DNA of 64,000 bases from Heterodontus francisci (lineage: Eukaryota). The DNA lies in contig NC_090404.1 in the NCBI RefSeq assembly GCF_036365525.1, forward strand, positions 7,006,001 to 7,070,000, read 5' to 3'. The notes under the pieces were generated by a model that was not told the DNA's origin, ran no database searches, and was given only the letters and a program-made list of their open reading frames with translations. The position numbers and the translations under genes are program-made. This document shows, piece by piece, positions 1,276 through 54,460 of the stretch; the first letter of the stretch is position 1; the number at the start of each line of letters is the position of its first letter.

Positions 1276-1277
1276 TA

Positions 1278-5920: not shown

Positions 5921-6518
5921 AATAAAAAGGCCAGATTACAGGCAAAAGCATTATTCAAATGCACTGTTTCAACAGACACCGTCTCCAACAATTTCCCTCA
6001 TACATTTTGGACCTGCAATCACAATGAAGTAATATTCTCAAAGAAACTGCGATAAATTGATGATTTCCCAACTACTTTCATGAGAAATAAACAAACAAGA
6101 TTGGAATTCACATCCGATCCCTTACTCAACACCACTGACAATCTCCAAGTAAGTAACTGTCTGATCCCTATCTTCAAAATAATTGTTATCGATCTGTAAA
6201 CCTCCCTCGTTATCTTCTCGTATTCCCTAATGATGGAACGAAATTGATGCAAAATAAAATAGAGCCTGACACTAAAGAAAAAAGAAACTGACACGTTTTC
6301 CAACACGGCCTGCATGAGGATGATAAAAGAAGAACGGCTGTGGATTTAATAAGAGAGAGAGATTGCTGAGCATGAATAACAACAATAAATAAGCATTGAC
6401 AATTAAATTAAAGAACAAAATAACAGCTGAAGGAAGAGAACTCCAAATACAAAGTAACAATCTTAGATCCTGGAGTGATAAATCATCTAAATACATTTTC
6501 TCCTCTACATCTGCGTAG

Positions 6519-6646
6519 ATTCCTCAGACCACATCTGGATTGAAGACAATGAGGAAAAGAGCGGCAACATCTGGAGAACCGCTTCCACATTCATCATCCT
6601 GTTCTTCCTGAGCATTTTCTACAGTGCTGCCGTCACTCTGGTGAAG
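6519..6646 (+). pseudogene. IGHM: IgM TM1 exon (cluster A), splice donor mutated
   Basis: DSSDHIWIEDNEEKSGNIWRTASTFIILFFLSIFYSAAVTLVK with CART-type TM motif; followed by TTGAGA where cluster B has GTGAGA. Confidence 0.9.
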
Positions 6647-6790
6647 TTGAGAATATTCAATCCACTCACACTTCAATTTGACTGAAGCTGTTTGACAAAT
6701 CTCGAAAAGTTTCATAGATTTAAAAAATAGTCTGAGATAAATATCCAGACCACGAAACCTCTGCTTCATTCTTTTATCCCTCTTTTACAG

Positions 6791-6799
6791 GTCAAGTGA
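6791..6799 (+). CDS. IGHM: IgM TM2 exon coding part (VK*), cluster A
   Basis: TTTTACAG|GTC AAG TGA; same as cluster B. Confidence 0.88.
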   Translation, partial: VK

Positions 6800-8042: not shown

Positions 8043-8082
8043 TACACTGTCCCATCAAGCACTCCAGGACAGTAGCAGCACA

Positions 8083-26518: not shown

Positions 26519-26570
26519 ATGGCCATGCGGATATTCAGCGCCTGGGTTGTGTGTGCGGTGTTTATACTTG
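26519..26570 (+). pseudogene. Leader exon of TCR alpha/delta V pseudogene 1
   Basis: MAMRIFSAWVVCAVFIL(G), phase-1 GTAAGG donor at 26571, 105-nt intron. Confidence 0.8.
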
Positions 26571-26675
26571 GTAAGGATGACTTCAATCATGTTGTCTCCA
26601 AGTTACTGTGTTAATATTATTTCAGTAACGCCTTTTAATTCTCTATCTTGTCTTCGTCCTGAACGCATGTTACAG

Positions 26676-26955
26676 ATCAAAGTGATGGCGATACTGTTAC
26701 TCAGTCCCAGTCTTCAGAAAGCGGGAGAGAAGGTGAAGCAGTGACTATAAGATGTACCTATAGCACAGGTATTAGTTATATTGGTACCGGCAACAAGCAG
26801 AAAAAGACTCTCAGTTTGTTGTGTGGAGATGGTCTGGGGATACACGACAATTGAAAGGAGAAGATGTTGGAATTCGTTTCTCTGCTGAGCTCCAGACCGC
26901 GACTAAATTCACCAGTTTAACTATCTCGGGTCTGCAGCTGACTGACTCTGCCGTT
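26676..26955 (+). pseudogene. TCR alpha/delta-type V exon, pseudogene 1 (CDR1 frameshift, truncated before YYC, no RSS)
   Basis: DQSDGDTVTQSQSSESGREGEAVTIRCTYSTGISY //frameshift// YWYRQQAEKDSQFVVWRWSG...RFSAELQTATKFTSLTISGLQLTDSAV. Confidence 0.85.
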
Positions 26956-28948: not shown

Positions 28949-29233
28949 GAGTGAGTTATGGTGACTCTGTCAGACAGTGGCCAACAGAAGCCCAATATTT
29001 GGAAGGAGTTTCGATGAGCATTAATTGTATCTATTCAAACTCCAATGTGAGCTATTCTGTGCAGCTTTATCGTCAGAGCCAGAACATGGCTTCCACTTTC
29101 GGAATTCAGGCATATCCCGATGGAATGTACGAAGTTAACGGTCATTCTGGAAACGTTCGCAATTCGAGCTTTTCTCATCGTGACTGGGCTGCAGCTCGTT
29201 GACAGCGCCCTGTACTACTGTGTCTTGAACCTA
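28949..29233 (+). pseudogene. TCR alpha/delta-type V exon, pseudogene 2
   Basis: GVSYGDSVRQWPTEAQYLEGVSMSINCIYSNSNVSYSVQLYRQ...NSSFS //2-nt shift// LIVTGLQLVDSALYYCVLNL; acceptor reads CGG instead of CAG (28946-28948); invariant Trp replaced by Leu. Confidence 0.82.
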
Positions 29234-29270
29234 CACAGAAAAAGACCTCGGGATACTTCGTACAAATACC
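29234..29270 (+). other. Damaged 23-RSS of TCR V pseudogene 2
   Basis: CACAG + 23 nt + ACAAATACC (29262-29270); consistent with CACAGTG having lost TG. Confidence 0.7.
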
Positions 29271-34651: not shown

Positions 34652-34657
34652 TTTATT
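34652..34657 (-). terminator. Candidate poly(A) signal of membrane IgM mRNA (cluster B)
   Basis: AATAAA on the minus strand about 420 nt after the TM2 stop; the homologous site in cluster A (7224-7229) reads AATAAT. Confidence 0.55.
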
Positions 34658-35076: not shown

Positions 35077-35085
35077 TCACTTGAC
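35077..35085 (-). CDS. IGHM: IgM TM2 exon coding part (VK*), cluster B
   Basis: TTTTACAG|GTC AAG TGA. Confidence 0.9.
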   Translation of the reverse strand, partial: VK

Positions 35086-35224
35086 CTGTAAAAGAGGGAT
35101 AAAGGAGTGAAGCAGAGATTTCGTGGTTCGGGACATTCATCTCAAGGTTAAATTTATGAAACTTTTAGAGATTTGTGAAACAACTTCAGTTAAATTGAAG
35201 TGTGAGTGGATTGAATATTCTCAC

Positions 35225-35352
35225 CTTCACCAGAGTGACGGCAGCACTGTAGAAAATGCTCAGGAAGAACAGGATGATGAATGTGGAAGCGGTTGTCCAG
35301 ATGTTGCCGCTCTCTTCCTCATTGTCTTCAATCCAGATGTGGTCTGAGGAAT
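35225..35352 (-). CDS. IGHM: IgM TM1 exon (cluster B)
   Basis: DSSDHIWIEDNEEESGNIWTTASTFIILFFLSIFYSAAVTLVK; AG and GTGAGA intact. Confidence 0.93.
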
Positions 35353-35959
35353 CTACGCGGATATAGAGGAGGAAATATATTCAAATAGTTTATTAATCCA
35401 GCATATATTTTGCATTCGAATGTCTCTTCCTTCAGCTATTATTGGTTTTCTAATTTAATTTTCAATGTGTGGCTATTAAGTTAATCATGCTCAGTAATCT
35501 ATCTCTGTTACCAACTCCACAATCATTCTTCCTTTATCATCGTCCTCCAGGCCTTATTGGAAAATGTGTCAGTTTTTTCTTCAGTGTCAGGCGCTTTTTT
35601 ATTTTAGATGCAGTTGCGGTTTTTCTTAAGGGATTATTATGGTGAAATATGAGATATCGAGGGAGGTTTACTGATCGATAACAATTATTTTGAAGATGGG
35701 TTCGGATATCTACTTATTTGGAGATTGTCAATTGTGCTGAGTAAGAGCTCGGATGCGAGTTCCAATCTTATTTGTATGTGATGAATGTCGCTTGAAAATC
35801 ATTTACATTCCTCAGTTTCTAAGTGAGAATTTTGCTTCGTTATCTTTTTAGGTCCACCGTGCATTCGGGAAGTTGTTGGAGATGGTGTCCATTCAATCAG
35901 TGCATTTGAATTCTACTTTCGTCAACAGCCTGGCGATTTTGTCTGCGCATTCAGTGTTT

Positions 35960-36890
35960 GTGCAAATGTGTACGAGTATCTTCCTTTGCATCACTCTCTG
36001 TTTCCATGTGTACGTGTGTGTGTGTGAGTGTTAATGTGTGGGAACAATGTAGTTGTTTGGGTGCCCATGTGTGTGTCAATGCGCGTGTTTATATGTTAAT
36101 GCCTGTGTGTATGTGTCCATGTATGTTAGTGTGTTAATGTGCCAATGTGCATTGATTTGTGTAATCAAGTAGCCGTCTGTGTGTGTTTGGTGTGTGTGTA
36201 TGTGTGTGTTTGTGGTGTGTATATGTGTGTGTGTAAGTCTATGTGAGTTGTGTTTCTTTATCCGTCTTTGTTTATGAGCGGTTGATGTTTATTTATGTCG
36301 GTGTCTGTGTCCCTATGCGTGTGTTAATATCTGTGTTTCTGTGTTGATGGATGTGTTTATGTTTCCCTGTGTTTCAATGTGTGTTTATATGTCCATGTGT
36401 GTGTGCTAATGTGTTATTTATGCCTGCTTGTGTCCCCATGAGTGTGCGAATGTATGTTTTTGTTGATGTCTACGTTTATGTATTAATGCATATATTAATG
36501 TGTGTTTATGTGTGCATGTGTGCGAATGTATGTGCTGATGTGCGCGCTTGTGTATCCATGTTAATATTGGTGTCTATTTGTTTGTGAGTGAGTGTGTTCA
36601 TGTGTTAGTGTGTCTGTTTATCTGTGTGCATATGTACCCGAGTCTGTTAATATGCGAGTGTATGTGTCCATGTATGTGTTAATGTGTGTGATAGTGTGTG
36701 CTTTTATGTCTAGGTTTCTGCTTTCGTGAGACTGTACTAACGTGTGCATTTATGTTCGTGTTTGCGTATGTGACTGTGGGAATCTTTCTTTCAGCGTTTG
36801 GGTTTGTTTGTGTATGTAGATGCAAATGTGTGTTTGTACATGTGCGTGTGTTTATGTGTTTGTTTATGTCCGTGTGCCTGTACATTTTTA
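35960..36890. repeat. TG-rich low-complexity tract in the CH4-TM1 intron (cluster B)
   Basis: Degenerate (TG)n; counterpart of 4640-5920. Confidence 0.85.
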
Positions 36891-37924
36891 TTATTAAACG
36901 AAATTTCAGAGAGTACAAATAACCACGTCTAGCCCTGACGGTGTGCACTGCAGAGAATATTCTTTATCGTTCTGTGCGTAAATCTATTCTGTGCAAGATG
37001 CAATATGACATCAGCTGGATGAATGCAACAATGAAAATGATGGGCCTCAGCACAACAGGAATAGTGGATGATTAAATCACCAGTTAGATTTAGACTATTG
37101 GAATTTAATCTGTCAGGGAACGTGGCCAACAGGAAAATGTTTTAAGATATCATGTTGCATAAAGATATATTTTGCAATATGTTTCCCATTTGGAATGTTT
37201 AAACCTTCGTACAGTGAACTGGAAGCCGACTTTGAACTGATGGCAATTGAATCCGATCATGAAGAGCAGTTGGCTTCCAATCTCTCTGCAGGGGGAGTGG
37301 GAGTATAGTGGGTTAACAAATGCCTTTACTCCTTTCTCTGTCGAGGAATTGGTGAGGGGTGGGGGCCTATTACAGTAGGTCCACAATTGCCTTCCTTCTC
37401 TATTGGTGAAGTGGAGTAACAGTGGATTAACAATTACCCTTTCCCCCTCTCTGTTTCGGATGTGGATCTACAGTAGATTAATAAATTGTACTTTCCCCTC
37501 TTTCTGATGGAGAATTGTGAGTGCAGATCGTACTTGTGTGTGGCCTTCGGTTCAGTTCCCAGAGCATGTGATGCTGAAACTGCAAACTGACCTCAATACC
37601 GAAGGGGTGGACAACACGAGAAGCAGGAACACCGATATCTAAATGCACTTCGTTTGTTCGTCAGAAAAGGGAAATTTTCAGATATCCCCAGACAAGGCAG
37701 GAGGAAAGCTAAGTTGCTGGTGTTACCTTCCGGAATCCTGTAATGAATCAGTTTTCCTCTGTCGCTAACCTGTGGGATCTGAGTTGGGAGCACTGATTGC
37801 ACAAGACTTGGGCCCGAGACCTGCAAATATCCCACTTTAGATGAATAGATCTACCCTTAGAAAATGTGGGAAGCAGAATTAATTGAGCGCTTGTGTATTT
37901 GAATCGTGATTGGAGGAAAATGTC

Positions 37925-37940
37925 TTTATTGATTTTTATT
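37925..37940 (-). terminator. Tandem poly(A) signals of secreted IgM mRNA (cluster B)
   Basis: Two minus-strand AATAAA (37935-37940 and 37925-37930), 30-45 nt after the secretory stop. Confidence 0.8.
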
Positions 37941-37968
37941 TAAGTATTAAAATGCAATCGAGAGATTC

Positions 37969-38360
37969 TCATTGACATGAATTGACAGTATCCAACAGTG
38001 CAAGGGAAATGTTCACAAAACTCGGTTTACCGCTGGATTTATTAACTGTTCTGTTGATGATCTTCAAGGGGATCGCTTCATGTCCCACCACACAGGAGTA
38101 AGAAGCGCCGCTGGCCCACTCCTCCGCTGCAATGGATAACAGGCTGTAGATGAAGTAGGAGCTATTTTCGTTCTCCGCCATCACCTCGGTGTTCTTGTAG
38201 TTTCCGGGATTCACCGACTTGTCATTGACGGTCCACTTGACGAATATCTCTCGGGGGGAGAAACCTCTCACTAAGCAGGTGAGGGAGAGGAACCTCTGAG
38301 CGGAGACATCGTCTGCCGGGGGCAGGAGGACAGATACGGACGGTTCCCGCAGATCTTTAT
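37969..38360 (-). CDS. IGHM: IgM CH4 plus secretory tailpiece (cluster B); membrane-form donor at 38030
   Basis: 392 nt, open; NKDLREPSV...[19 protein letters not shown]. Confidence 0.96.
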
Positions 38361-38861
38361 CTGCAGAAAAATTAAAATAGATATCAATGAACTGGATAAT
38401 TCCACAGATAATTAAACCGTTGGTTAGATGTGAGAGAAATGTGATTTGTGCTGAATTTTAAAGGTTTCCCTTTCCCCTTTGCGGCCTGTCCTGTTTCCCA
38501 GCCCGGAGCAGAGGCGGATGCAATCCCCTTCGCAGAGAACTTAAAGGATTAGACTGGAAAATTACATAGAAGTAAAAAGCACAGGAACAGGCCATTCAGC
38601 CCAGCTAGCCTGTGCTGGTGTTTATGCCGCCCACGAACCTCCTCCCACCTCACTTCATCTCTTTCTAAACCTTTCTCCCTCATCTACTTATCTAGCTTCC
38701 CCGTAATTGCATCACCTCTGGTTCCAGAGCGTTTCGTTTGCAGAATTACAATTAAATTATCAGAATAATCCATGAGAACACTTAATAGGACGAATTGTTC
38801 CTTGTACAAACACCGGAAATAAGCACAACCTCTCACTTATTGTTTCAATCTCACCGCTCAC

Positions 38862-39170
38862 TTTTTTCCTTGTGGATGAAATCTCTGAGAGGAGTCGGCA
38901 GATCCTGATGGCTCACCACGCAGTAGAAATCAACCCCACTCAGCCAGGATTGTGCCGAGATGTCTACGGTGCTGATCACACTGTCGGAATCCTCTCCGGG
39001 TTGCACGGCAATCTCAGATTTCAAAGGCTTCTGTTCTTGTGTCCAGGACACGTTGACACCATAAGGAGCATTAGACACGACGCAGGTTAAGGTCACCGTC
39101 GCCTCCAGTAAGACCTGTTCTATTGATGGTGGCAGTAGCTTAATTACTGGATCATTGCAGGAACAAGGAA
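38862..39170 (-). CDS. IGHM: IgM CH3 exon (cluster B)
   Basis: 309 nt, open; [15 protein letters not shown]...[24 protein letters not shown]; canonical splice sites. Confidence 0.96.
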
Positions 39171-39736
39171 CTGTAAAACAGAAATGGCAATAAAACAAAG
39201 ATTCATCTTCAGAATCAGACACCAATATTCAGCCTTCACTGTCTCTAGGAGAATAAATCAACTTCGAGACATCGACCTCAGGCTGTTGCTTTATTAATAT
39301 CGTTTATTGGAAGGACAACAACCTGAAAAAGCTTCCGGGAGATTCTGTAACATATACTGTGTACTTGCACCCTAAAAAGCCGATAATGGGCTTTGAAGTA
39401 AGTACCCAGAGTAAAAATCGAATAATTGCGGGAGAAATTGTGTTACGCACTGAATAATGTTCTTCCCGAAATCCCTTCGGAGCTAGCTCGAAGGGCCGTA
39501 TGGCCTACTCCTGTTCCTAATTCGGATGTTCGTTTGTTAGTATTTCCGCCCGTCTATCAGTCCTTGCACCGGATCACATCTCCTCTAAATATAATGGCTC
39601 TGACACCCACGAGCTCTTTATCGAATTCACACTGGCTCATAACGAGAGTCAAATGAAATCCCGAATTTTAGGCCCAACAGGAAACAAACTTAATTTTCTG
39701 GCACCTTGTCACGGTATTTGGGGAGAGGAAAATATT

Positions 39737-40076
39737 TAGATTTTAGATTTAGAGATACAGCACTGAAACAGGCCCTTCGGCCCACCGAGTCTGTGCCGAC
39801 CATTAACCACCCATTTATACTAATCCTACACTAATCCCATATTCCTGCCATTTCCTCACCTGTCCCTATATTCCCCTCCCACCTACCTATACTAGGGGAA
39901 ATTTATAATAGCCAATTTACCTATCAACCTGCAAGTCTTTTGGCTTGTGGGAGGAAACCGGAGCACCCGGAGAAAACCCACGCAGACACAGTGAGAACTT
40001 GCAAACTCCACACAGGCAGTACCCAGAATTGAACCCGGGTCGCTGGAGTTGTGAGGCTGCGGTGCTAACCACTGCA
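39737..40076 (-). mobile_element. V-SINE (HE1-like)
   Basis: GCAGTGGTTAGCACCGC...GGTTCAATTC; TGTGTGGAGTTTGCA core; TCTAAA tail. Confidence 0.8.
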
Positions 40077-40923
40077 TATGAAGGAACCAATCGGAGGAGG
40101 GGTGAAAAATCGGGAAAATGCACTTCTGAGGAATCGCTTTGAGGTGCAGAACAACTTACAATAACGGTATGAGGCAGTTTTCTTATATCTGTCATGAGTC
40201 AGAACGCCTCATATGTCAGTCTGCAGTCAGAAGGCGATCTGACAAGAGGGCAATAATAGAAACATAGGAAAAAGCGTAGGTCATTCAGCCCCTCCAGCCT
40301 GTTCTGCCATTCAAATAGGCAATGGCTGACCTGCATCTTAATCCCGTCTGCCCATATGCGATCCTTAATAGTCTTGCTTTGCATAAATCTATCAATCTCA
40401 ACATTAAAATTTCCAATTGATGCCAAACTTCAAGAGCGAGTTGAGGGAGAGAATACCAGATCACCGATAGCCACTGCATAAATGTTAGCTTCCTGATATC
40501 ATCCCTGAATAACCTTGGTCTCATTTGAAAGTTATGCCCCCTTGCTCTCGAGTCCCTCACCAGAGGAAATATTTTTCTCCATCGACTCCATCAATTGCAG
40601 TAAACATCTTAAACACCTCAATTAGATCCCCCTTCAATCCTGAAAGCAATGCCAGTTTGGTCTGTGAAATCTGTCCTCTTAATTTAACCCGTTCAGCCGC
40701 GCTACAATTCAAGTCAGTTTCTGTTGCACCACTCCCACGGCCAATAGATTCCTCCTGAACTCCGGAGTTCTGAATTGAACACAGTTTTCTAAATCGATGC
40801 TCTTTCTAGCGCTTGATCCCGAGGCTGTAACCAGGAAACGTCCAGCCACTTATTGCCGCTCTGAATATAATCAGCCAACTCAAGATAAACCTGATATCAA
40901 GGCCACCTCATTCACTATGTGAC

Positions 40924-42901
40924 AACAATGAGATGTAAGACTGAGGATTGGGAGTGTTTTAGAAACCAGCAAAGGACAACCAAAACGTTGATAAAAAGGG
41001 AAAAAATAGAATTTGAGAGTAAACTAGCCATCAATATAAAAATAGTTTGGAAGATCTTTTATAAGTACATAAAAAGGAAAAGAGAAGCCAAAGTAGACGT
41101 TGGTCCCTTAGAGGCAGAGACAGGAGAAATCATCATGGGGAATGAGGAAATGGCAGAGGCATTGAACAAATATTTTGTGTCTGTCTTCACAGTAGAAGAC
41201 ACAAGTTCCATACCAGAAACAGGCAGTAACCTAGGGGCTAAAAAGAGTGAGAAAATTAAGGATATTGATATCAGCCGAGAAAAAGTATTGGAGAAACTTG
41301 ACAGAGTAAAATCTGACAAGTTCCCAGGACCTGATGGCTTACATCCTGGGGTTCTAAAAGAGATAACTGCAGAGATAGTGGATGTGATGGCTATGACTTT
41401 CCAGAATTCCTTAGATTCAGGAATGGTCCCATCAGCCTGGATGTTATGGCAAATGTTATGCCGCTTTTCAAGAAAGGAGGTAGAGAGAAAACAAGGAACT
41501 ACAATCCAGTTAGCCTGACGTCAGTCGTTGGAAAGATGCTGGAAACTATTATTAAAGAAGTCTTGACATTACACTTGGAAAAGCATAGTATGATTAGAAC
41601 AAGTCAGCGTGGTGTTACTAAAGGGAGATACTGTTTAACAAATGTATTAGAGATTTCTGAGGATGTAACTAGTAGGGCAGATAAAGGGGAACGAGTAGAT
41701 GCAGTGTACCTGGACTTTCAAAAGGCATTCAGTAAGGTGCCACATAAAAGAATAATAGGCAAGGTCAGGGCACATGGTGCTGGAGGTAGTATATCAGCGC
41801 GGACAAAGGATTGGTTAACAGACAGGAAGCAGAGAGTGGGCATAAATGAGGCATTTTTAAGTTGGAAGGCAGTGAATAGTGGGGTGCCGCAAGGATCAGT
41901 GCTGGTGTCTCAGCTATTTACACTCTATATTAATGACTTGGAAGAAAAGACAGAGAGTAATGTATCTAAGTTTGCTGATGATACAAAGTTCAGTGGAAAG
42001 GTAAGCTGTGGGGAGGATATATAGAGAGGCTGCAAAGAGATATAGACAGGTTAAGTGACTGGGCAACAAGTTGGCAAATGGAGTATTATACAGGGAGTTC
42101 TGAAATTGTTCACTTTGGTCGTAAAAATAGAAAAGCCAAATATTTTGGTAGGAGTGAAAATGGTAAGTGTTAATGTTCCAAGAGACTTGGGGGTACTCCT
42201 GCAAGGAACACACAAAGTTACCATACAAGTGCATCCGGCTATTAGGAAGGTAAATGGCATGTTGGCCTTTTGTGCAAGGAGATTGGAGTACAGGAATAAA
42301 GAAGTCTTACCAAAATTGTACAGGGCTTTGGTGAGATCGCAAATGGAATACTGCGTGCAGTTTTGGCCTTCACATTGAAGAAAGGATGTCCTTTCACTTG
42401 AGGCAGTGCTGCGAAGATTTACTAAATTGGCCGCATTGGTTGATGGGCTTGTCCGGTGATGAGAGACTGAGTAAATTGGGCCTATATTCTCTGGCGTTTA
42501 GAAGAATGAAAGGCAATCTAATTGAGACACACGAGATTCTGAAAGGGCTTGATAGGGTAGAAGCTGAGAGATTGTTCCCATTGGTCAGGCAATCATAAAC
42601 ACGGGGAAACAGCCTCAGGATAAGGAGCCATTAATTCAGGACTGAGATGAGAAGAAATTACTGCACTCAAAGAATTGCGAATCTTTGGAATTCTCCACCA
42701 CAGAGGGTTGTGGATGCTCCATCATTGAATACATTTAAGGCTGGCATAGATAGATGTTTGGCCTCGCGGGTAATCAAGGGATATGGGGAGCGGGCAGGAA
42801 AGTGGAATTGAAGCCCAAGAACAGCCATGATCGTATTGAATGACGAAGCAGGCTCGATGGGCCATATGGTCTACTTCTGATCCTATTTCTTGTGTTCTTG
42901 T
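40924..42901 (+). mobile_element. CR1-type LINE 3' half inserted antisense in the cluster B CH2-CH3 intron
   Basis: PGPDGLHP, YLDFQKAF, GVPQGSVL and FADD; absent at the matching cluster A site (about 752). Confidence 0.9.
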
Positions 42902-43117
42902 ATCAAAGCAGAGGGAACCATTATTTGGTGATGTAATAACATGTTGAACCGTGAGCAAACCTAATTCAGCACTCACAGCGGAACAAAGCAAAATAAAACC
43001 TACATGATGGTAAATTAGAAATTATTCTGTGATTTGTACTAATTCCAATAATTTCCTGCCTTTGATATTCATCATAGAACAGAATGATCTGGAGCTTTCT
43101 CCATTTGTGTCTCTTAC

Positions 43118-43435
43118 CCTGAGATCCGGTGATGTTTCGGCTTTGGGTGACCGCTTGATGGGAGACCTGGCAGGTATAGACCGTGTTGGTGAACCATTCC
43201 CCAGCGGGGACTGTCAGCCGACTGGTCGCTGAGAAGTTTCCGTTCACTTCACAGGCGGGAGAGGTGACGAAGCCCGAATCCATGGATTGTCCATCCTTCA
43301 ACCAACTCACGGTTATTGACTCTGGATGGAAATCGATGATTGAACACAAGACAGTTGCAAATCTGCTGCTTGTGATTTCTTCACTGGAAGTCTGGGTGAG
43401 GAGAACAGTTGGATGGACGATGTCGCCTTGACAAT
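43118..43435 (-). CDS. IGHM: IgM CH2 exon (cluster B)
   Basis: 318 nt, open; [11 protein letters not shown]...[20 protein letters not shown]. Confidence 0.96.
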
Positions 43436-43638
43436 CTTCAAGAAAAACATGTTAGACATTTCTAGAAGAAATTAATAACTAATGCAAACTGTTCTTACAT
43501 TTTAACAGATGTCAAGCAGACACTAACTGGAATCTCCAGGAATTAGAACAGAGCACAGTGCTCTAAATGTGATATAGCCAAAGCTCTACAAAAGATTATT
43601 ATAGCTTTTGTGTTTTTCACAGTTTCCACAACACTAAC

Positions 43639-43935
43639 CTGGAATTTCCTTGATCCAGACTGACTCTCCGCGTCGAACCTCGCAGTAGATTTTGCTGCTT
43701 CCCACCTCTGATTCGGTGATGGTTAACTGGCTGCTCAGGGTGTAGGTTCCCTTCTTGTTCAGCACTGACGGGTAAGTCTTCAGTCCAGTGGTGATCGTCT
43801 CTTGATCTTTCTTCCAGGAAACGCTGGTGATTTGGGGGATGTAGTCCATCGCCAAACAGCCGTAGGCAACGGAGCCACCGGTGTTGGGTTGTTCACAGGA
43901 GCACAGACCATAAAGTGTTGGGGGAGACGGTGTCG
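43639..43935 (-). CDS. IGHM: IgM CH1 exon (cluster B)
   Basis: 297 nt, open; [16 protein letters not shown]...YGCLAMDY...[18 protein letters not shown]. Confidence 0.96.
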
Positions 43936-44672
43936 CTGGGAAACAATGGCAGATTGAACAAGTTAGACTCTGTGATTCTTGCTTATCAAGTAACCAGACA
44001 CATCGGAATTTAACTCCAGCTAGAAACTGATTCCAATATTTTCCGATTAAAACCTTCATCCGCATTTCAGCTTCATTTAGATCCATCGTTTGGTGATAAT
44101 CGCCTGTCGGTCCCCTGGTTAGGAAAACACCTCTCTTTCAGGACCTGTCACATTACAAAATTAAGAGCCTTTTGAAGTCATCTCAATAAAGTACCCTCCA
44201 TTGGACGGATCTGGAAGAGGAGATTCCCCACTATTTCAGCTAGTACTTATTTCTAAACCAACAGCACCTTGCCAAAAAAAAAGCACTCGGCATTTATTAA
44301 TTGCAGTTTTTGGAAATTTACTCTCTGCAAATTGACTGCTGGGTTTCCCCACCCCTCCACATACCACCACCACCCACCCACCCCACCCCTCCACCCCACG
44401 CCCACCCCCACCTCTCCCCACCCCCAAATAGCGGCTACTCTTAAAAAGAGGCATCGCAATGTGTGCTTATAAAACGAGTTTATAACCCGAAACTTGACTC
44501 CCAGGCAAAGTCCTTTCATTATTTCCCCATAAAAAAACCTACAACAAATCCTAGCATGTACATGACCCAGAATTATAAAATAATAGAAATGATAGCAGAG
44601 AAATAGGCCATTCGGTCCATCAAGCCTGTGAAAGATCACTCCAGCGATCCCGCTGACCTTCCAATTACTAAT

Positions 44673-44840
44673 TTAAAGCAACATACTGCGGATGCTGGAA
44701 ATCAGAAATAAAAACAAGAAATGCTGGAAATGCTCAGCAAGTCTGGCAGTATCTGTGGAGAGAGAAACCGAGTTAACGTTTCAGGTCAGTGACCCTTCAA
44801 CAGTGACCTGTTGAGTATTTCCAACATTTCTTGTTTTTAT
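44673..44840 (-). mobile_element. Penelope terminal-repeat fragment with short inverted end and degenerate hammerhead (44771-44807)
   Basis: Reverse complement of the 9310-9442 tail; flanked by TTCCAATTACTAAT and TTCCAATTCCTAAT. Confidence 0.75.
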
Positions 44841-45842
44841 TCCAATTCCTAATCTTCTTTTCTAAAGTTCCATTTTATCCAGCTATGTTGGATTCTGTTG
44901 ACAGCTCTCTTTCTGATAGGACATCCCAGATCCTAACAACCCCCTGTGTAGAAAAGTAGATTCATACCCTCTTCCTTCATTCTTTTGACGCTGATTTTAA
45001 ATCAGTGCCCTCTACAGTCCAACTCACTGATCTGGGCAAATTGGTTTCGAAATTTCTGGATAAAACATTCATTATTCAAAACACCTCTACATGACTTCAT
45101 TTTAATCTTCTATGTTCCCACAACAATAAAGAACTTTAACAATAAATAGTTGAAGTCTCCTTTGAAACATGGACTGAATCATTTAGTACACAGATTTCAG
45201 AGGGGAATTTTTACACAACCTAGTTTCTGGAATTAAAATTTTAGATGACTCGGCATTGACTCTAGACTATCAGTTTCCTTCTCAGTACTTGAAGATTGTG
45301 ATTTGTGTTCTAGCTTTACTGAATGGATCTCTCCCGAGTTTACTGCTCCCTCCAGCTCAATTAATAATCCGAAATAAATCCGATTCCTAAATATCTGTCA
45401 TCTGGAATGATGTTCTTGAAATGGTCCATTTAATTTTCCAAAGTATCTTCCCACCCCTCACCAGTGAGAACTGGTGTTGCTGACTGTGTTGTTACAGACA
45501 CATCTTCTTGCAGCTTGCACCGACCATAATGTGAACATCAGGAGAGGTTTCTTCTATAAATATCTGATATTCACATTACTTACACATTATACATCGAGTG
45601 AATATCAGTAAGTTCCAGGCAAGGGAGGACAAAAGTTCCTGAAGTGTTATTGCTGACATGGCCAACTCTCACTTCTGTTTTGTGTGGACAATTCAAACAC
45701 TTGAGGCTTATTGGTCAGATATTGAAAGCTCGCTCACCAAAAGGATGGAAAAGAGATTGTCGATGTTGGTGGCACAAAGGTTGGACAGATGGGCTCTCAA
45801 ATGACATTAGATAACATTCCACATCAGACAACATTCAGAAAT

Positions 45843-46148
45843 TTTAGAAATACAGCACTGAAACAGGCCTTTCGGCCCACCGAGTCTGCGCCGACCAACA
45901 ACCACCCATTTATACCAACCCTACAGTAATCCCATATTCCCTACCACCTACCTACACTAGGGGCAATTTACAATGGCCAATTTACCTATCAACCTATAAG
46001 TTTTTTGGCTTGTGGGAGGAAACCGGAGCACCCGGAGAAAACCCACAGGGAGAACTTGCAAACTCCACACAGGCAGAACCCAGAATCGAACCCGGGTCCC
46101 TGGAGTTGTGAGGCTGCGGTGCTAACCACTGCGCCACTGTGCCGCCCA
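45843..46148 (-). mobile_element. V-SINE (HE1-like), full tRNA head
   Basis: GGGCGGCACAGTGGCGCAGTGGTTAGC box A and GGTTCGATTC box B. Confidence 0.85.
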
Positions 46149-46189
46149 TTTGGGGAGCAGAATTTCGAAGTTCGAGAATTATACGAAAC

Positions 46190-47070
46190 AAATTGTGAGC
46201 AGGATAGCAACAGAGTTCAGGAGGACATAGACAGACTGGTGAAATATTCAGAGACAGAGCAGATGCAATTTAATGCGGTTAAATGTGAAGTGCTGGACTT
46301 TGAGGAACAACGGGGAAAGCTAATGCAATGTAAGTGGTACTATTTTGAAGGGGGTAGAACGGTAGAGGGGCCTGAGGTGCATATTCACAATGTTTTGAAG
46401 ATGGTTAAGAAAGCAAATAGAACACTTGGTCTTGTAAAATGGATTATTGAATACAAACAAGGAAGTCATGTTAAAGCTTTGCAAGTCACTGATTAGGCTG
46501 GAGTATTTTTTGCACAATTCTGGCCATCACACTTTCGGAAGAAGGTCACGGCTTTGGGGAGAGTGCAGAGGGAGTTTACCAGGATGATGTCAGGAATGAA
46601 GGAGTTCAGTTATGTGGAGAGATTATACAAGTTGAAATGTTCTCCTTCGCTGGATACTGAATAGGCATGTTCAAAATTATGGGATGTCTTGATGTTGCAG
46701 ATAAGGAGAAACTGTTTCCTCTGGCAAGTGGGTCAGTGGTAAAATAAATAATTGGCAACAAAATGGAGTGTGGGCGGGGTGGTGGCTGCAGAAGGAGGTC
46801 TCTTTCCTGACAGAAGGTGATTTTCACAAAAGCATAGAACGGTTACAGCACAAAGGGAGACCATTCAACCCGTCGTGTCGATGCATGCTCTCTGTAAGCG
46901 CATCTAGAATGCACAAGGCACCAGGACATGTCCTAGAAGGAGACTACATTTCATGGTTACGAGGGGGGAAATGGCTTGTAGGATTAAATTGGAGAGCTCT
47001 TTCAGAGCTAACACAGGCATGGCGGGCTGAATGGCCACATTACGTACGAGAAGATTCTGTGATCCTACCC
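46190..47070 (+). mobile_element. Decayed CR1 LINE 3' fragments
   Basis: QEDIDRL...QFNAVKCEVL...KKANRTLG. Confidence 0.7.
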
Positions 47071-47769
47071 GCCTCAGTAGAGTTAGTTCTTCCAAATTCA
47101 ATGGGAGGAAAGGCTTCATAAATTTGAACATCTCTGACATTTGTTTCTATTGCTTATTATAATGAAAGAGGATTTTTAAAATAAGAGGATCTGAAAGATT
47201 TAATAGAAGTGAGTCAATCAGATACCGTCGGAGACTTAAAGTTTATTGTGATTGACATTGATTGCAGGCTAACTGTATCACTTCAAAAGTTACACAGAAG
47301 CTTACTTCAGTGGCTTTGTGCCCTCTGCTGTGACCCAGTCCAATAACTGCATCTCAGAGTTTATCACTGCCTGTTATCTTTTGAAAATACTTGAACGAAA
47401 TACTGGTTTTAAACATGAGATTATCATGATGGTTATTTGGAGCAGGAGTCTCGACTTTTCTCCATTTAAATCGCCAAAAGGTCTTCCAGCCTCATCAGAT
47501 CAGAACAGGTGCTGTTCTCTGGTATGTTACAGTCACTTCCTGAAACTGTTTGTTCTGAAAGCGCTCTCAAAATCAGACCAATTTCATTCAATAATTATCT
47601 GATGCTTAACATTTTTAAATATTATTAATTCATTAAAATTTGGCCATGAAAGAATATTAATACCAATTAATATGCGTTGTTTAATCTGGGCAATGGAACG
47701 ATTTATTTTCATATATCTGGGTCAAGAACTCACAAGTTCTAAGTTAGATGCAGATTAAGGATGCTTGGA

Positions 47770-48170
47770 ACACTGGGGAAAACACTCTCAGGTCAGGTAC
47801 AGGAAAGATAAGCGATCGAGTAAAGACCCCCTTGTACGGCCCTGTCATGAGCTGTAAGGTCAGACATCGCAAGTGTTATATTCGGAGGAAAGCCGCCTCT
47901 ACACTACACTGTCGCTCCGGGTCAGGTACAGCACTAGTTTAATATTTAAAAAAATAGTTCCCTCTACGCTGTCCCATCAAATACATCCAGGACAGGTTGA
48001 ACCAGGTTTAGGTACAGAGTAATTTCTCCCTCTACCCTTGCCTCATCAAACGGATCCAGGATAGTTACAGTATGCATTAAGTATGCAGTAAAGCTTCCCC
48101 TACATTGCCGAATCAAACACTCCCAAGGGAGGTACATTGCTGATTACAAACTGACCAAATATCCTTCTAC
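47770..48170 (+). repeat. ~63-bp tandem repeat, degenerate, in the J-C intron
   Basis: CCCATCAAA...GGTTAGGTACAGAGTAA units. Confidence 0.65.
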
Positions 48171-48609
48171 AGTCTGTCTGTCGTGTCGCTGAAGTGTTAT
48201 TTCCGATTGTCACAGACTGGAATACTGATCTCATTGCTGAGGCGCCTCATCAAACTTAAAGTCAAAACTTTAGGTTTCTCACAGATACAAGCTTCTTAAA
48301 TAAATGGATCAAGTTGCAGGAGAACGAATCAGACTGTTTACCACCTGTAGGGAGGGCTCCTCGTCCCGACACAGTAAGCAGGCGCACAGAAACTGAACAG
48401 GCACAAACGATGCAACAATCGGGCTCTCAGCAGATAGATCTGTTCAATCTGTCAATTTCAATGAAGCTGTTTGATTCTAATTTATCAATTGTCAAATTGT
48501 GACCATTCCAAGTCTGTAAGCTCTTTGAAATTAAACTGATAGTCATTTCCAAAACTCCCTTCGACCTCCAAATGTTTCTCCCTGTCTGTTTGCAATCTTA
48601 AAAACGTGT

Positions 48610-49518
48610 ATGAAAATTCTGAAGGAGAGAATCTATCTCCACTTGGCGAGGCAAAATTTGATTAGGTTATGGTCAGCATGGCGATGTCAAATGGAATTTA
48701 ACGCTGAAAAGTGTGAGGTGATACACTTTGGAAGGAATAATGTGATACGGAAGTATTCAATGAATGACCTGACACTGGGAAGTTCTGAGGAATAAAGGGA
48801 CCTTGGCGTGTTTGTCCATAGAACTCTGAAGGAAGAAGGGCAGGTTAATAGGGTGGTGAAAAAGGCATATGGGACACTTGCCTTTCTCAATCGAGGCATA
48901 GATTACAAAAGCAGGGAGGACATGTTGGAGTTGTACAGAACTTTGGTCAGGCCACACTGGAGTACTGTGTGCAATTCTGGTCGCCACATTATAGGAAGGA
49001 TGTGATTGCACTGGAGGGGGTGCAGAGGCGATTCACCAGGATGTTGCCTGGGATAGAACATTTAAGCTATGGAGAGAGGTTGGATCGGCTTGGGTTGTTT
49101 TCGCTGGAGCAGAGAAGACTGAGGGGTGACCTGATCGAGGTGTACAAGATTATGAGGGGCATGGACAGGGTGTGAAGGGAGCATCTGTTACCCTTAGTTG
49201 AAGGGTCCATTACGAGGGGACAGTAGTTTAAGGTGAGGGGTGGGAGGTTTAAGGGGGATCTGAGGAAGAACTTACTTTTTTACCCAGAGGATGGTGACGT
49301 TCTGGAAGGCCACTGCCTGGGTGGGTTGTCGAGGCCGGTTGCCTCACATCCTTTAAAAAGTACCTGGATGAGCATTTGGCACGTCACAACATTCAAGGCG
49401 ATGGGCCACGTGCTGGCAAATGGGATTAGGTAGACAAATCAAGTGCCATTAATGCATCAGTGCAGACTCAATGGGCCGAATGGCCTCTTCTGCACTGTAT
49501 TATTCTGTGATTCTGTGA
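48610..49518 (+). mobile_element. CR1 LINE 3' fragment
   Basis: QMEFNAEKCEV...[11 protein letters not shown]...[11 protein letters not shown]; ATTCTGTG tail. Confidence 0.85.
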
Positions 49519-52491
49519 GAAAGTTTCCCTTAAAATGAGTACACCAAAACAATCCACATTCAGGAAACTTTGATGTCGGTGACAGGAACTCAGTGACAGA
49601 TAAAGAATTTAGCAAATCAGGAGACATTTAATTGCAAACAGATTACCCACTGGTTTGATACAATTTCAGAACTAAATGTTATCAAAAAAGCATTGAAGCA
49701 ATACACAAAGTTAATTAAAATCAGCGGTGAAACCTTATCGAGCTGAGAACAGCTGAGTAAGAAATGTGTTGTTCTCTAAATTATTTTTGGACATCATTCA
49801 AAATTCTCTCCGGCCCTTGCTATTTTGCACTCATTGGACTCCTGGGAGGTCACTTATGTTTACTGAATTAGCGCTATTATATTCTAGGTTAATATTTAGG
49901 TTACCTGATTTTACACTGTAATTTTGAGCATTAGTTAATATTAATTCAAGACCAATTTCTGTGAAATTATCGGATTTTAATTAAATTAATATGACATTTA
50001 ATCAATATTAAATAATAGACGTCATATTGATCGATGAAAACATTCAGACAAATATATTACTTAATCGAATCACAGTTCAATAATTTAAAATGAACAATAA
50101 TTTCTACTTCGGCCCTGCTTTCAATCTACAAACTTGGAAACTGCGCATGTATCTGAATGTGTTGATATATCATAAACTCTGTCTAATCTCAGCGAGTATT
50201 TCACACGATGGATTTAAGAGTGGAATATTTTAAATAGTTTCAAGCCAGGCCAGGGTCACATCTCACTAACTGTTCATGGGCTGTAACATCCCCTGTTTGT
50301 GAAAGCAGGACTCTGGTGTTTAAATATTGTCATAAATCTTAACCATCTAAGAAAAAAATCAAAAACATCCGGACAGTTTGCGATCAGGAACTGTGCTGCC
50401 TCTATTTAATCAGACAATGTTTTTATACTTTATTCTCGTAATGCACACAATCCCCGTAAATTAATTGGTAAATATATTCTGTTTTTTTTTATTGAAAGAA
50501 GCTCCAAAATGATCACTGTAAAATTGGACAGAGAATAATTCTTTCAGATCATCTGCGACATTTCAAACTTAATGAACAAATGTAACCCAGATTTTGCTGA
50601 TCAATTTAATATTTCATAAGAATTAAGCATAACTCTCAGGTATAATCTGTTCTTTGTCTATAATTCTATCCTGTGTGCAGCATACCGATGGGAGACAGGA
50701 TTTTGTTACTGAATTAAAAACTAACATTAACCTTTTGTAATTAATTGAATCTGCTTGAATTTCAAGGGGTTATTTGTTTGCCTCCAGCCTTACGCAGTTT
50801 GCAAGTTTCTTCAATTTAAACAAAATCATATCTGCAATACTTTGACTGCCAGCAACTTCCTGTCTCAGGAAAATTGTTAATATTAGATTAGTAATAATTA
50901 TCTCACTATCCAACAACAAATGACATTTAAGGAAGAACATGGTTTGGGCTGCACGCAAAGAATGTAATAACCGGACAGATATATTACACTGACAAACTGC
51001 AATTTACAACTCCTATTGAAGTTAGAAGTCAAGACAAGCTGTAATTCACTTGTTTTAATCAGAAATATAACAATTAATTCAAAATCGTTCATCAAACTGA
51101 ACACAGCACTAGAATAAGTACACTCTTATTGAAATAATTTCAAGCATAAATTAAAATTGTCTCCAGCCCATAACATTTCTGGTCACGATAATTGTGCACA
51201 TGGCACCCCAGAACTGTGAAAGTCGATTAATGAATAATGAATCGATGTTAATATTAAAGCATATTTGGTTTATCTGATGAGATATTGCCGCATTAAAACT
51301 GTTTGAATTACATTAACTTTACTCTCCAATCTGCAAACCTTCTAATTATGCAGTTTGTAATTGCAGTAACATTTCACGGACTTTCACGTCACAGACCATG
51401 GCTTAATAGTTTAACCTGTAATTATCAGTTAAATTTTTAAAATGCCATGAAATATCTTAAAATATTATTTCTCATTTCTTTCAAACAGTTTTAAACACGT
51501 AGAACGTTTCAATTCGATCAGAAAACCTGCAGCCGCTCGCTCGAGATTAAACAATGTAGAAACACCAAACTGTTTCACAAATTTTACTTATTCAAAGTAA
51601 CACACTCTCTTCAACAGATGAACACCAAATCACATCACTGAGGAACTGAATCCCGCCACAGTACATTTCATGGAGAAGCAGCTTAATTCTACAAATAATA
51701 CCAGCAGAATGAAATGCAATATTGCAAAAAAAAAATCTCAATGCAGAATCCACCGAGCTCGCCTACACCTGAACTAACTAATTATTAAAATGATCAGATA
51801 TTTGAAACAATGGTCGCAGAATTGTTAGTAGACAGAACATGTTTAATAAATTATTATGAGCCAATGGCATAATCCATTGATATTGGCTGATATCACTGCA
51901 TTATAATAACGAAGATTATATTAATTTAAATCTGACCAAAGCTGCAAGTTTGTGATTTATGAAGCTTTTAATTACATCAACATTTATTGTACTACATGTG
52001 AGCATTCCTGAGCAGTAGATTGACAGATGGCAATTTAATTACCACAAATATGAATCAAAATATTGTAAGACTATTCTTAACCATTGAAGCTTTCTGCCTA
52101 TACTTTTATTTCAAACATATTTAAACACTTATTGTTTGCGCTAGACTAGAAAACCTGCAGCGACTAAATGTCAGCAAGTTGATCAGCAGAAATGTCGAAC
52201 AGTTTAACAACAGTTCGGTATTTAAAGTAGCACAGACACACCGTCTCATCAACAAATATACACCAAATCACATCAAACAGTAACTGAATCCTTCAACAGC
52301 ACAGAGAAGCTGTGGAGAAGCCGTTAAATTCTCTAATCCCTTTGCAGCAAAATCACATGAAACATTGCACCAAATCTCAATACAGAATCCACCGACTCCA
52401 CATTTCAGTGAACTAAGGTATCGTTAAAATAAACAGAAATATAAATAAAAACACGAATAAAACAGTTACTGAATAAATGCATGTTTCTTAC

Positions 52492-52539
52492 CTGCAGTCA
52501 CCGTCACCATGGTCCCTTGTCCCCAGTAGCCCATGGCGT
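52492..52539 (-). CDS. IGHJ: JH segment (AMGYWGQGTMVTVTA)
   Basis: WGQG motif; GTAAGA donor at 52491. Confidence 0.95.
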
Positions 52540-52578
52540 CACAGTGTTACATTCCCTGGGCTGGGTCACACAATAACC
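52540..52578 (+). other. JH 23-RSS
   Basis: CACAGTG - 23 nt - ACAATAACC. Confidence 0.92.
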
Positions 52579-52904
52579 GGCTCTGCACAGAATAGAGAGA
52601 AATCCATCATTATTTTAAATATCCATACCCCAGAGGCAAAATAAAATCTTGATGGTTCTTTGTAAAATTATAACTGCGTTAATGATTCTTTTCACTCTTT
52701 ATAATTTTCCCTGATGTTTTATATTTCACACAGTAACATATCAGCAATTATTGAAATCACCAACTGATGAATGAATAATTAATCCGTTTATCCATAATAA
52801 ACCGTGCTCGGAGGATAGTGCTGGACACAAATAGAACTTCACTGTATATATCGTTGGATTGTTAAAGCGAGCACTGACCCAGACTCATCAATTAGTGCTG
52901 AGGG

Positions 52905-52973
52905 AGTTTTTGTATTGACAGTAACTGCTGTGCCACCCAGTATATCACAGTGAACCACATTGTGTAAAATACT
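52905..52973 (-). other. DH2 segment (coding 52933-52945, ATATACTGGGTGG) with 12/12 RSS
   Basis: J-side CACAGCA-12-ACAAAAACT; V-side CACAGTG-12-TAAAATACT. Confidence 0.88.
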
Positions 52974-53287
52974 GCGGTGGACTGTTAACTGTAAAATACA
53001 GAGATTAAATTCCACAGCGTCCTCAAAAACCTGATTCCGACTCCCCTCCGAGTATATCAGTAAGATAATTCAGTTTATACCCGTCATTATATTTATAAAG
53101 GGGATTTGAATACTTTTGAAGCTTCTGTACTGATTTAGCGTGACAGTCAGCACTAATTACGCAGGAGACTTTTATACATTTTTACAAATCTATATTATAT
53201 TTCCCCAGTATTTTTATTTAACCCTCATTCTTTATGGACCATCTACCGTGTTAAGTGATCACTGGTTTGTGCAAACTCCCTGTATGG

Positions 53288-53367
53288 GGTTTTTGTATGA
53301 GGAATTCGCTCTGTACAGCACCGTGACCCACTGCTGTACCCACAGTGAATGAACCTGCACAAATACT
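53288..53367 (-). other. DH1 segment (coding 53326-53340, GGTACAGCAGTGGGT) with 12-type/22 RSS
   Basis: J-side CACGGTG-22-ACAAAAACC; V-side CACAGTG-11-ACAAATACT. Confidence 0.9.
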
Positions 53368-53751
53368 GCACTCACTCTCTGTTCAGTACTGCCTCTCACC
53401 ATTCACTTCATATAGAAATCCATTTCTGATCTAGTTCGGAATATATCCAAAAGTTTACACCACGCAGTAGGAAGTGACTCCAAGTAACTCGCTCCAGGTC
53501 TCAGTCACCTTAAAACTAACATCTTATCCAGATCTGCAATTGCCGATACTGTTAACATTAAAAATCAGCACAGCCAAAATTACTCATCAGTACTTCGATC
53601 AGTGTCTTAGATTTGAACCATTGAATTTTCACTGTGCTAGTTGTGTAAGAGACGGTCTCTGGTCTGTTTCTGAACACTGCCGTTAATATTGTATTTAATA
53701 CAATTACTGACCGTTAGATTATGATGGAAGTTCTTGAATTCCCTCTCCATG

Positions 53752-53790
53752 TGTTATTGTACGGGTCCAGCCCTGGTTCTTCTCATTGTG
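53752..53790 (-). other. VH 23-RSS
   Basis: CACAATG - 23 nt - ACAATAACA. Confidence 0.88.
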
Positions 53791-54095
53791 CTCTCTGGCA
53801 CAGTAATAAATGGCGGTGTCTTCGGTCTTCAGTTTCTTCATGTCCAAAGCGAAGATGTTTTTTGAAGTGTCTTTGGACGCAGTAAATCGATCTTTAATCT
53901 CTGGGGCGTAAGCATTGTTAGATGAACTATAGTAGCTAACCAGCCACTCCAGCCCCTGTCCGGGAACCTGTCGGATCCAGTACATCCTGTAGCTGCTAAG
54001 AGTGAACCCGCTGGTTTTACAGGTCAGTCTCAGGGAGCCTCCTGGTTTCCCGGTCTCTGCCTCTGACTGAGTCAACACGACATCCGAATGGACAC
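53791..54095 (-). CDS. IGHV: VH exon (cluster B), unrearranged and open
   Basis: [52 protein letters not shown]...[10 protein letters not shown]. Confidence 0.97.
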
Positions 54096-54201
54096 CTGTA
54101 AAAAATATTTAAAAACCCGAGGATTAATCCTGGTGAAATAATTCCTGACTCTGTAACATTCCAGAGAGAGACTAACACTGAGACGGTAACAGTCTACTCA
54201 C

Positions 54202-54247
54202 GGGATAAGAAAACCAGCAACAGACTGAGAGAAATCGCCGACCTCAT
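54202..54247 (-). CDS. IGHV: VH leader exon (MRSAISLSLLLVFLS)
   Basis: ATG at 54247; phase-1 GTGAGT donor at 54201; 106-nt intron. Confidence 0.93.
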
Positions 54248-54338
54248 CCTTCTGGCAATTCAGGGAAAATGGTTCTGGTAAGAACTCACTGAACAAATCC
54301 ACTCCCGGACTGTTGTATTGTGGTCCCAGTGACCGGCA

Positions 54339-54460
54339 TTTAAATACCCGACAGAAGGGGGCGAGGTTATAGGCGCCGCCTATTGATTCCCTGATAGAGG
54401 CGGTTACTGGATCCACGTCCCACCTTCCACATCACTAACAGAATGGACTCATATCATGAC
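54339..54460 (-). promoter_or_regulatory. VH promoter: TATA-like box and TCR-like decamer, no octamer
   Basis: TATTTAAA 54339-54346; AGTGATGTGG 54427-54436; no ATGCAAAT seen nearby. Confidence 0.55.

Follow-up and report, generated by a model that had tools for sequence, protein, structure and literature searches.

In the nurse shark, IgHV segments that trans-rearrange with TCR-delta, as well as the TAILV, were reportedly described by Criscitiello 2010 and Deiss 2019, and IgH segments with defective C regions are said to lie within the TCR-delta locus of that species. The accessible part of Flajnik et al. 2025 (PMC12227049) describes an elasmobranch complex, the AgRC, in which IgM, IgW and IgNAR clusters are in linkage with the TCR alpha/delta genes, and a general Ig-TCR linkage is treated in the available portion of PMC3964593. 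In Table S1 of PMC12227049, whose rows are NCBI gene models from four other species and do not prove intactness at base level, IgM clusters are interleaved with TCR alpha/delta V genes on both strands. Great white shark chromosome 27 carries nine IgM rows among 29 TCR/NARTCR rows (17 plus, 12 minus), and four of the nine have neither a 'pseudo?' nor a 'missing V' flag, which speaks against the view, taken in an earlier note on this DNA, that an intact IgM gene among TCR V genes would be unusual. The IgM rows flagged 'pseudo?' are two on the plus and one on the minus strand; a catshark IgM row stands on the strand opposite to TCR-delta, 81 kb from TAILV, and in both stingray and catshark rows for Ig-like Vs that stand alone (Ig-TCRd V, TAILV) lie directly upstream of the TCR-delta C gene (PMC12227049).

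Rearrangement in sharks is intra-cluster and deletional in the accessible sections of PMC2435157 and PMC5192425. The former (Malecek et al. 2008) places the functional nurse shark IgM miniloci G1-G5 at least 120 kb apart, reports rearranged IgH bands in 44 of 48 single thymocytes without Ig transcripts, and regards long-range joining between IgH loci as rare if present. Ig-TCR-delta chimeras are known in sharks, according to the parts at hand of PMC12227049 and mentions in PMC5931798 and PMC6795676. Our literature search found PMC12227049 as the sole description of the arrangement reported here, and the supplements of Deiss 2019 and Ott 2021 may hold others.

The layout itself has thus already been published for other sharks and rays. 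What is new here is the base-level detail, and the finding of an intact and a defective IgM gene 28 kb apart among dead TCR V genes. Compared with the AgRC as described, the anatomy here has been verified at the level of single bases, and a distance of 5.8 kb separates the cluster from its closest V, a dead one; compared with G1-G5, the two Cmu genes are close, tail-to-tail, and one of them is defective. The locus has in common with the trans-rearranging IgHV/TAILV of the nurse shark an IgM-type VH, a 23-nt RSS and a piece of chromosome that carries TCR Vs, but here the VH owns a complete D-D-J-Cmu, and a TAILV identity was rejected because the cluster has its own J and Cmu.

Layout of the IgM cluster and its neighbours

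The window, by which we mean the whole 64-kb stretch of DNA analysed, contains on its minus strand an intact IgM cluster that is probably functional. It has the same V-D1-D2-J-Cmu4 layout as the IgM of the horn shark (Heterodontus francisci), represented by HV01_HETFR (P0001) and the membrane C region (P0124). The leader exon (54202..54247), one residue different from the horn shark leader, is followed by an open VH exon (53791..54095; Pfam V-set 1e-17; 83% identical to HV01), whose set of CDR1 (SYRMY) and CDR2 (YYSSSNNAY) differs from that of the reference. Downstream are D1 (53326..53340), D2 (52933..52945) and JH (AMGYWGQGTMVTVTA; 52492..52539), so that a single VH, two D segments and a single JH share an orientation, are unjoined in the germline and span 1.25 kb from the end of VH to the start of JH. 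The constant region consists of Cmu1 (43639..43935; Pfam C1-set), Cmu2 (43118..43435) and Cmu3 (38862..39170), both found by domain search, and Cmu4 with the secretory tail (37969..38360), which has the penultimate Cys and an internal GT donor after 38031; these four are 95%, 88%, 89% and 95% identical to P0124, respectively. TM1 (35225..35352) has an identity of 83% to the membrane IgM of the horn shark, and TM2 (35077..35085) encodes VK and the stop. Identities as IgW, IgNAR or a germline-joined IgM were rejected, since the gene has unjoined segments and its four Cmu domains are of the type seen in horn shark IgM.

All seven donors are GT (leader, J, CH1, CH2, CH3, internal CH4, TM1) and all seven acceptors AG (V, CH1-CH4, TM1, TM2). 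Cmu1 to Cmu4, the secretory tail and both TM exons are open and can be spliced correctly, the Cmu coding sequence is free of lesions, and the spliced secretory and membrane frames each end in a single terminal stop. Two AATAAA signals (37925..37940, minus strand) lie 28 and 38 nt past the secretory stop, and a third (34652..34657, minus) lies 419 nt past the TM2 stop. The earlier note, which had described a complete, apparently functional cluster with open exons, canonical splice sites and both poly(A) regions, is borne out in these respects; its promoter corresponds to a TATA-like motif, TATTTAAAT, 5' of the leader (54338..54346, minus), a candidate at motif level, and the single octamer found in a window-wide search is at 36820, far from VH. 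The six RSSs that it listed are all present, although two depart from the canonical form. A strict, narrow CTCF-like pattern has no match in the window.

The VH RSS (53752..53790, minus; CACAATG...ACAATAACA) has a 23-nt spacer, D1 is flanked by a 5' RSS with an 11-nt spacer (53341..53367, plus) and a 3' RSS with a 22-nt spacer (53288..53325, minus), D2 by two RSSs with 12-nt spacers (5', 52946..52973, plus; 3', 52905..52932, minus), and JH by one with a 23-nt spacer (52540..52578, plus). This series, 23 / 11+22 / 12+12 / 23, would permit V-D1-D2-J joining under the 12/23 rule. A scan that allowed up to three mismatches recovered five of the six between 52450 and 53850, and none of 1000 shuffles of 2-nt blocks reached five (mean 0.052); the scan missed the D2 5' RSS with its weak nonamer TAAAATACT.

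The two nearest V segments, both on the plus strand, are pseudogenes. V1 (26525..26953) retains an intact leader, but it has a frameshift ahead of WYRQ, ends at 'DSAV', and has neither YYC nor an RSS; it is 52-57% identical to shark V proteins, and V-delta-1 chains are among its top, weak matches in a PDB sequence search. V2 (28949..29270, exon to 29233) has GG instead of AG at the acceptor position, L in place of the conserved W, a frameshift and a broken RSS (CACAGAA-21-ACAAATACC), and its best PDB matches are TCR alpha chains, again weak (E 0.018). On these weak matches, V1 is putatively a TCR V of alpha/delta type and V2 one of alpha type. Neither of the two qualifies as a functional TCR V with an open exon, acceptor, W and C, and a 23-nt RSS. 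The placement, the opposite orientation and the distance of about 6 kb given in the earlier note hold, with 5,844 nt between TM2 and the 3' end of V2, while the TCR V segments it named are remnants. Searches by tblastn (8 V proteins, E up to 1) and blastn (three V exons), together with a window-wide RSS scan, recovered only VH, V1, V2, JH and two Cmu genes; Pfam found no Ig domain in four unexplained ORFs, and no D, J or C-delta and no live TCR V was found within the 64-kb window.

The second Cmu gene (1..6799, plus strand) comprises the end of CH1, CH2 (233-550), CH3 (2399-2707), CH4 (3186-3577), TM1 (6519-6646) and TM2 (6791-6799). It is defective: CH3 is interrupted by a TGA stop (2572-2574), and the donor of TM1 reads TT (6647-6648). 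Its exons are still 90-98% identical to those of the intact gene, and therefore gene loss at this locus can be recent.

Joints and junctions in assembled contigs

Contigs were drawn from four runs (X1-X4 of 18 candidates) that belong to one sample of one study, presumed to be RNA from an unspecified tissue, and their alignment covered the leader-V-D-J stretch; contig depth cannot gauge usage. A leader-VH splice joint that skips 106 nt with GT..AG ends is present in all four runs, and 14 of the 15 joints listed (162 further) run from V to J and skip 1252-1268 nt, both at the level of the gene family. Stretches of 8-9 nt from D1 or D2 were read by eye in four of the 12 junction strings listed (431 further). 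At the JH donor, the loose end listed continues into Cmu1-type sequence in each of the four runs, with an agreement of 0.98-1.0. The consensus of these Cmu1 loose ends is one base off the window sequence and the CDR2 loose ends listed differ from the NNAY of this VH, and therefore most of the aligned contigs would derive from sister clusters. Rearranged and spliced transcripts are documented for the gene family, and we infer rearranged mRNA from this copy as well.

Some pieces match this cluster exactly. Record 30 of X4 spans 53946-54027 (82 nt, including CDR1) without a difference, and it could stem from another cluster with an identical CDR1; four intersegment pieces of 161-212 nt are likewise free of differences and may stem from carried-over DNA or from sterile transcription. 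Run X1 contains 0.68 of the words sampled from 43100-43950, where the two exons by themselves would give 0.676, and the plus-strand Cmu shares 40 of 288 CH2 31-mers with the minus-strand gene. No single contig in X1-X4 links the CDR1/CDR2 of this cluster to a junction and Cmu. Of the 246 loose ends, the 24 that were listed, from unspecified tissue and aligned without a C-delta reference, include no VH-to-TCR joint.

The contigs also bear on the two unusual RSSs. An extra C, giving a D1 5' spacer of 12 nt, is present in the one contig listed for each of X1 and X2, and the sister contigs have a C at 52966, inside the D2 5' RSS. Both 12-type signals are non-canonical and different from the sister contigs, deviations that could lower their use; because the contigs listed there have 12 nt, the 11-nt D1 spacer, a further difference from horn shark IgM, may reflect allelic variation or an indel in the assembly.

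Probable use of the cluster in B cells and possible use in T cells

We consider it probable that this is a conventional shark IgM minicluster (V-D1-D2-J-Cmu), likely an ordinary B-cell gene and one of many such clusters scattered among TCR V remains in the known elasmobranch Ig/TCR-alpha-delta complex. RAG would likely assemble VH, D1, D2 and JH through deletions confined to 1.3 kb, because the segments are co-oriented and carry the spacers given above, and the resulting VDJ would then likely be spliced onto Cmu1-4, with either the secretory tail or TM1-TM2 at its end. The cluster has likely been kept intact by selection on antibody function, and not by its strand, while its neighbours, the two TCR V pseudogenes and the sister Cmu, have decayed. 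Restriction of this copy to B cells would be expected under this reading; it is not guaranteed, because joining of IgM or IgW VH to D-delta is called common in sharks in the accessible part of PMC12227049. Since the two D-side RSSs look weakened, some donation of VH to TCR-delta is possible.

The D-delta RSS is of the 12-nt spacer type, and the 23-nt VH RSS and 22-nt D1 3' RSS would suit it. Such a match would allow the cluster both to make IgM and to lend VH or VH-D1, through long-range joining by deletion or inversion, according to the position and strand of D-delta, to D-delta in thymocytes for expression on C-delta; we think this dual use unlikely. The chimeras known from sharks favour it, as do the weakened look of the two local 12-type acceptor RSSs and the RAG accessibility of IgH clusters in nurse shark thymocytes (accessible text of PMC2435157); the same thymocytes, with IgH rearranged in most cells, also fail to support the need for lineage-specific accessibility that the earlier note had assumed. 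However, VH has D and J partners of its own no more than 1.3 kb away, inter-locus IgH joining is rare at most in the available text of PMC2435157, the window offers neither TCR-delta partners nor a live TCR V, and stand-alone Ig-like Vs such as those of stingray and catshark would be nearer donors. The CDR1, the CDR2 and the two odd RSSs serve as cluster-specific tags, which make it testable whether working IgM clusters supply the VHs of the chimeras or whether orphan and defective clusters are their sole source. Detection of this VH on C-delta would directly exemplify a single germline V that is used in both lineages.

Going further, the weakened 12-type signals beside intact 23-type signals at VH and D1 could mark a cluster that is turning from an antibody gene into a V donor for T cells, in which a VH left unjoined for long enough in thymocytes is captured by a D-delta megabases away and the defective Cmu represents the end state toward stand-alone TCR-delta-associated VHs. 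We regard this as improbable; if true, one germline gene would feed both IgM and the gamma-delta TCR.

Returning to the conventional minicluster, the same RSS deviations might instead signal early decay, with the gene intact but little used, the 11-nt D1 spacer and weak D2 nonamer reducing rearrangement, and the copy following its sister Cmu, which gathered two lesions at high exon identity. The CDR2 loose ends listed, unlike this VH, fit such a course; but the coding sequence has no lesion, an exact CDR1 piece exists, and neither a spacer that may be an indel nor contig depth can speak for low usage, and we give this reading little credence.

The earlier note had proposed that VH and D could reach TCR D/J only by inversion, that this would preserve C-mu, and that the cluster stayed intact for this reason. 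Somatic events are not inherited, and a somatic inversion in T cells therefore cannot preserve a germline gene; moreover, the VH and its promoter would still be split from Cmu. The cluster does run opposite to the two closest TCR V remnants, and the defective Cmu shares their orientation, but this is a single pair, the strand of two dead Vs is the sole basis for the orientation argument, and, because interleaving occurs on both strands, the strand of a neighbouring V carries no information on that of D/J-delta. The TCR rows of great white shark (17 plus, 12 minus) and the 'pseudo?' IgM rows (2 plus, 1 minus) in Table S1 of PMC12227049 likewise follow no single strand, and we find the proposal very hard to credit.

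That the adjacency is a misassembly of repeat-rich paralogous segments is also highly improbable: LINE fragments and tandem repeats do fill 29.3-34.3 kb of the window, but similar interleaving is tabulated in great white shark, catshark and stingray (PMC12227049). The two Cmu genes, 77-87% identical across long genomic blocks, are moreover separate genes and not a collapsed or mirrored copy, and their arrangement probably reflects an old inverted duplication.

The intact minicluster and signs of transcription in its gene family

As the earlier note had held, a complete IgM minicluster occupies 35077-54247 on the minus strand; its coordinates were set from the sequence and checked by scripted splicing. 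Leader and VH form an open frame, and both the secretory form (JH-CH1-CH2-CH3-CH4-secretory tail) and the membrane form, which runs via an internal CH4 donor to TM1 and TM2, have a single terminal stop, with GT at every donor and AG at every acceptor. VH is of V-set and CH1-CH4 are of C1-set type, and the nearest named proteins are horn shark IgM (identity: VH 83%, CH1 95%, CH2 88%, CH3 89%, CH4 95%, TM1 83%). Poly(A) signals follow both the secretory and the membrane ends, again as claimed, while the promoter described there comes down to a TATA-like motif, with no octamer found near VH.

The region 52350-54420 was compared with contigs from four sequencing runs (X1-X4), the best 4 of 18 run rows, none of the 18 being recorded as RNA; the four come from one sample of one study and consist of contigs only. 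Contigs matched at 90% likeness, and the signal is therefore assigned to the IgM gene family and not to a single copy. In all four runs the 106-nt leader intron is spliced out and Cmu1-type sequence continues beyond the JH donor; among the matches listed, 14 of 15 joints are V-to-J with varied ends and 4 of 12 junctions contain D1 or D2 letters. For the gene family, this pattern points to IgM mRNA that has been rearranged and spliced. The consensus of the Cmu1 loose ends is one base off the window sequence, and the CDR2 loose ends among the matches listed differ from NNAY, which argues that most contigs derive from sister clusters of the same family. Exact matches to the intact copy comprise one 82-nt piece over CDR1 and four intersegment pieces, and X1 contains 0.68 of the CH1-CH2 words, where exons alone would give 0.676; these matches make expression of the intact copy likely, not proven. 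Nothing among the matches listed for the four runs points to C-delta, an absence that carries no evidential weight.

Rearrangement signals and use of the cluster

All six RSSs claimed around VH, D1, D2 and JH are present, with spacers of 23 / 11+22 / 12+12 / 23; a scan allowing three mismatches passes five of them, a number that none of 1000 shuffles reaches (mean 0.052). Since the segments share one orientation and all lie inside 1.3 kb, joining by RAG would be deletional, the mode reported for shark clusters in section 6 of PMC2435157 and section 17 of PMC5192425. We consider it probable that the cluster is an ordinary B-cell IgM gene.

Dual use for IgM and TCR-delta, as the earlier note proposed, is possible in principle, if rather unlikely. 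The 3' RSSs of VH and D1 are 23-type, Ig-TCR-delta chimeric chains are termed common in sharks in PMC12227049, and PMC2435157 reports IgH clusters rearranged, without Ig transcripts, in 44 of 48 nurse shark single thymocytes. Given this last result, dual use would not require the lineage-specific RAG accessibility that the earlier note proposed; the same study places the difference between the lineages in whether rearrangement is completed and in transcription.

The 5' RSSs of D1 (53341-53367, 11-nt spacer) and D2 (52946-52973, nonamer TAAAATACT) differ from those of sister contigs. In X1 and in X2, the one contig listed has a 12-nt D1 spacer, and sister contigs carry C at 52966, so the two 12-type acceptor RSSs of the window deviate from those of their relatives; the 11-nt spacer may be allelic or reflect an indel in the assembly. 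On the boldest reading, which is very improbable, weakened local RSSs would be turning the cluster from an antibody gene into a V donor for TCR-delta.

TCR V neighbours and the inversion argument

The intact IgM gene does lie beside TCR V segments, V2 (28949-29233, plus strand) being 5.8 kb from its TM2, but both segments are defective. V2 is dead: its acceptor has GG in place of AG, the conserved Trp is replaced by Leu, the frame is shifted, and its RSS reads CACAGAA-21-ACAAATACC. V1 (26525-26953, plus strand) has a good leader, is frameshifted ahead of WYRQ and stops at DSAV, and neither YYC nor an RSS was found in it. A 37-nt stretch occurs twice, at 26949-26986 and about 27230-27266 (280 nt apart), the first copy replacing the V1 3' end and RSS. 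Weak PDB hits suggest that both are of TCR alpha/delta type: V-delta-1 chains are among the top matches of V1, ranked under three antibody matches, and TCR alpha chains rank top for V2. No further V, D, J or TCR C segments were found across the 64 kb.

The claim that TCR D/J could be reached by inversion only does not follow from this layout. Nothing about D-delta can be read from the strand of two dead Vs, since published TCR V rows stand on both strands, with 17 plus and 12 minus among 29 in great white shark (PMC12227049, Table S1) and both strands likewise in epaulette shark and stingray (same source). Nor can inversion explain why the cluster stayed intact. T-cell rearrangement is somatic and is not passed on, and thus offers no explanation of germline intactness; inversion would also separate VH and its promoter from Cmu.

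Table S1 of Flajnik et al. (PMC12227049) places nine IgM rows amid TCR Vs on great white shark chr27, four of them without a defect flag and two of these about 19 kb long, as is the horn shark cluster; in catshark, an IgM row 81 kb from TAILV lies antisense to TCR-delta. These entries are gene models, so base-level intactness is not established for them. The horn shark cluster is real, intact and probably expressed, and it is a further example of a published kind of layout. Literature searches, which covered only a minority of subscription papers, turned up no publication dealing with this cluster itself.

The second Cmu gene and other elements

A second Cmu gene (1-6799, plus strand) lies tail-to-tail with the intact gene, only 28 kb off, whereas PMC2435157 reports nurse shark clusters to be separated by 120 kb or more. 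Its V-D-J falls ahead of the window start. Its secretory and membrane forms are both broken, by a stop in CH3 and by TT at the donor that follows TM1. Exons of the two genes are 90-98% identical and long genomic blocks 77-87%, from which we infer an old inverted duplication followed by more recent loss of function. Between 5664-7700 and 36191-34177 the homology extends about 0.9 kb beyond TM2 (77%) and enters shared 67-nt tandem repeats, which also occur at 18689-18917; its end is probably the edge of the duplication. A 161-nt unit in the CH4-TM1 intron of the second gene (5104-5393) is duplicated at 97% identity, and the alignment of the two genes lacks this block.

An 839-codon open frame at 9941-12460 (plus strand), with endonuclease and reverse-transcriptase motifs recognised by eye, belongs to a LINE-type element, presumably CR1-like, that is apparently a young insertion between the IgM clusters. 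Open frames at 8076-8936 and 19940-20998 (plus strand) resemble retroelement endonucleases by eye, and we take them to be GIY-YIG-like and AP-endonuclease-like. In the 53682-53760 region, a tblastn comparison shows catshark and whale shark V proteins matching the D2 flank and JH as well, which identifies these database proteins as gene models overrunning the V exon; the pattern is not a feature of the locus.
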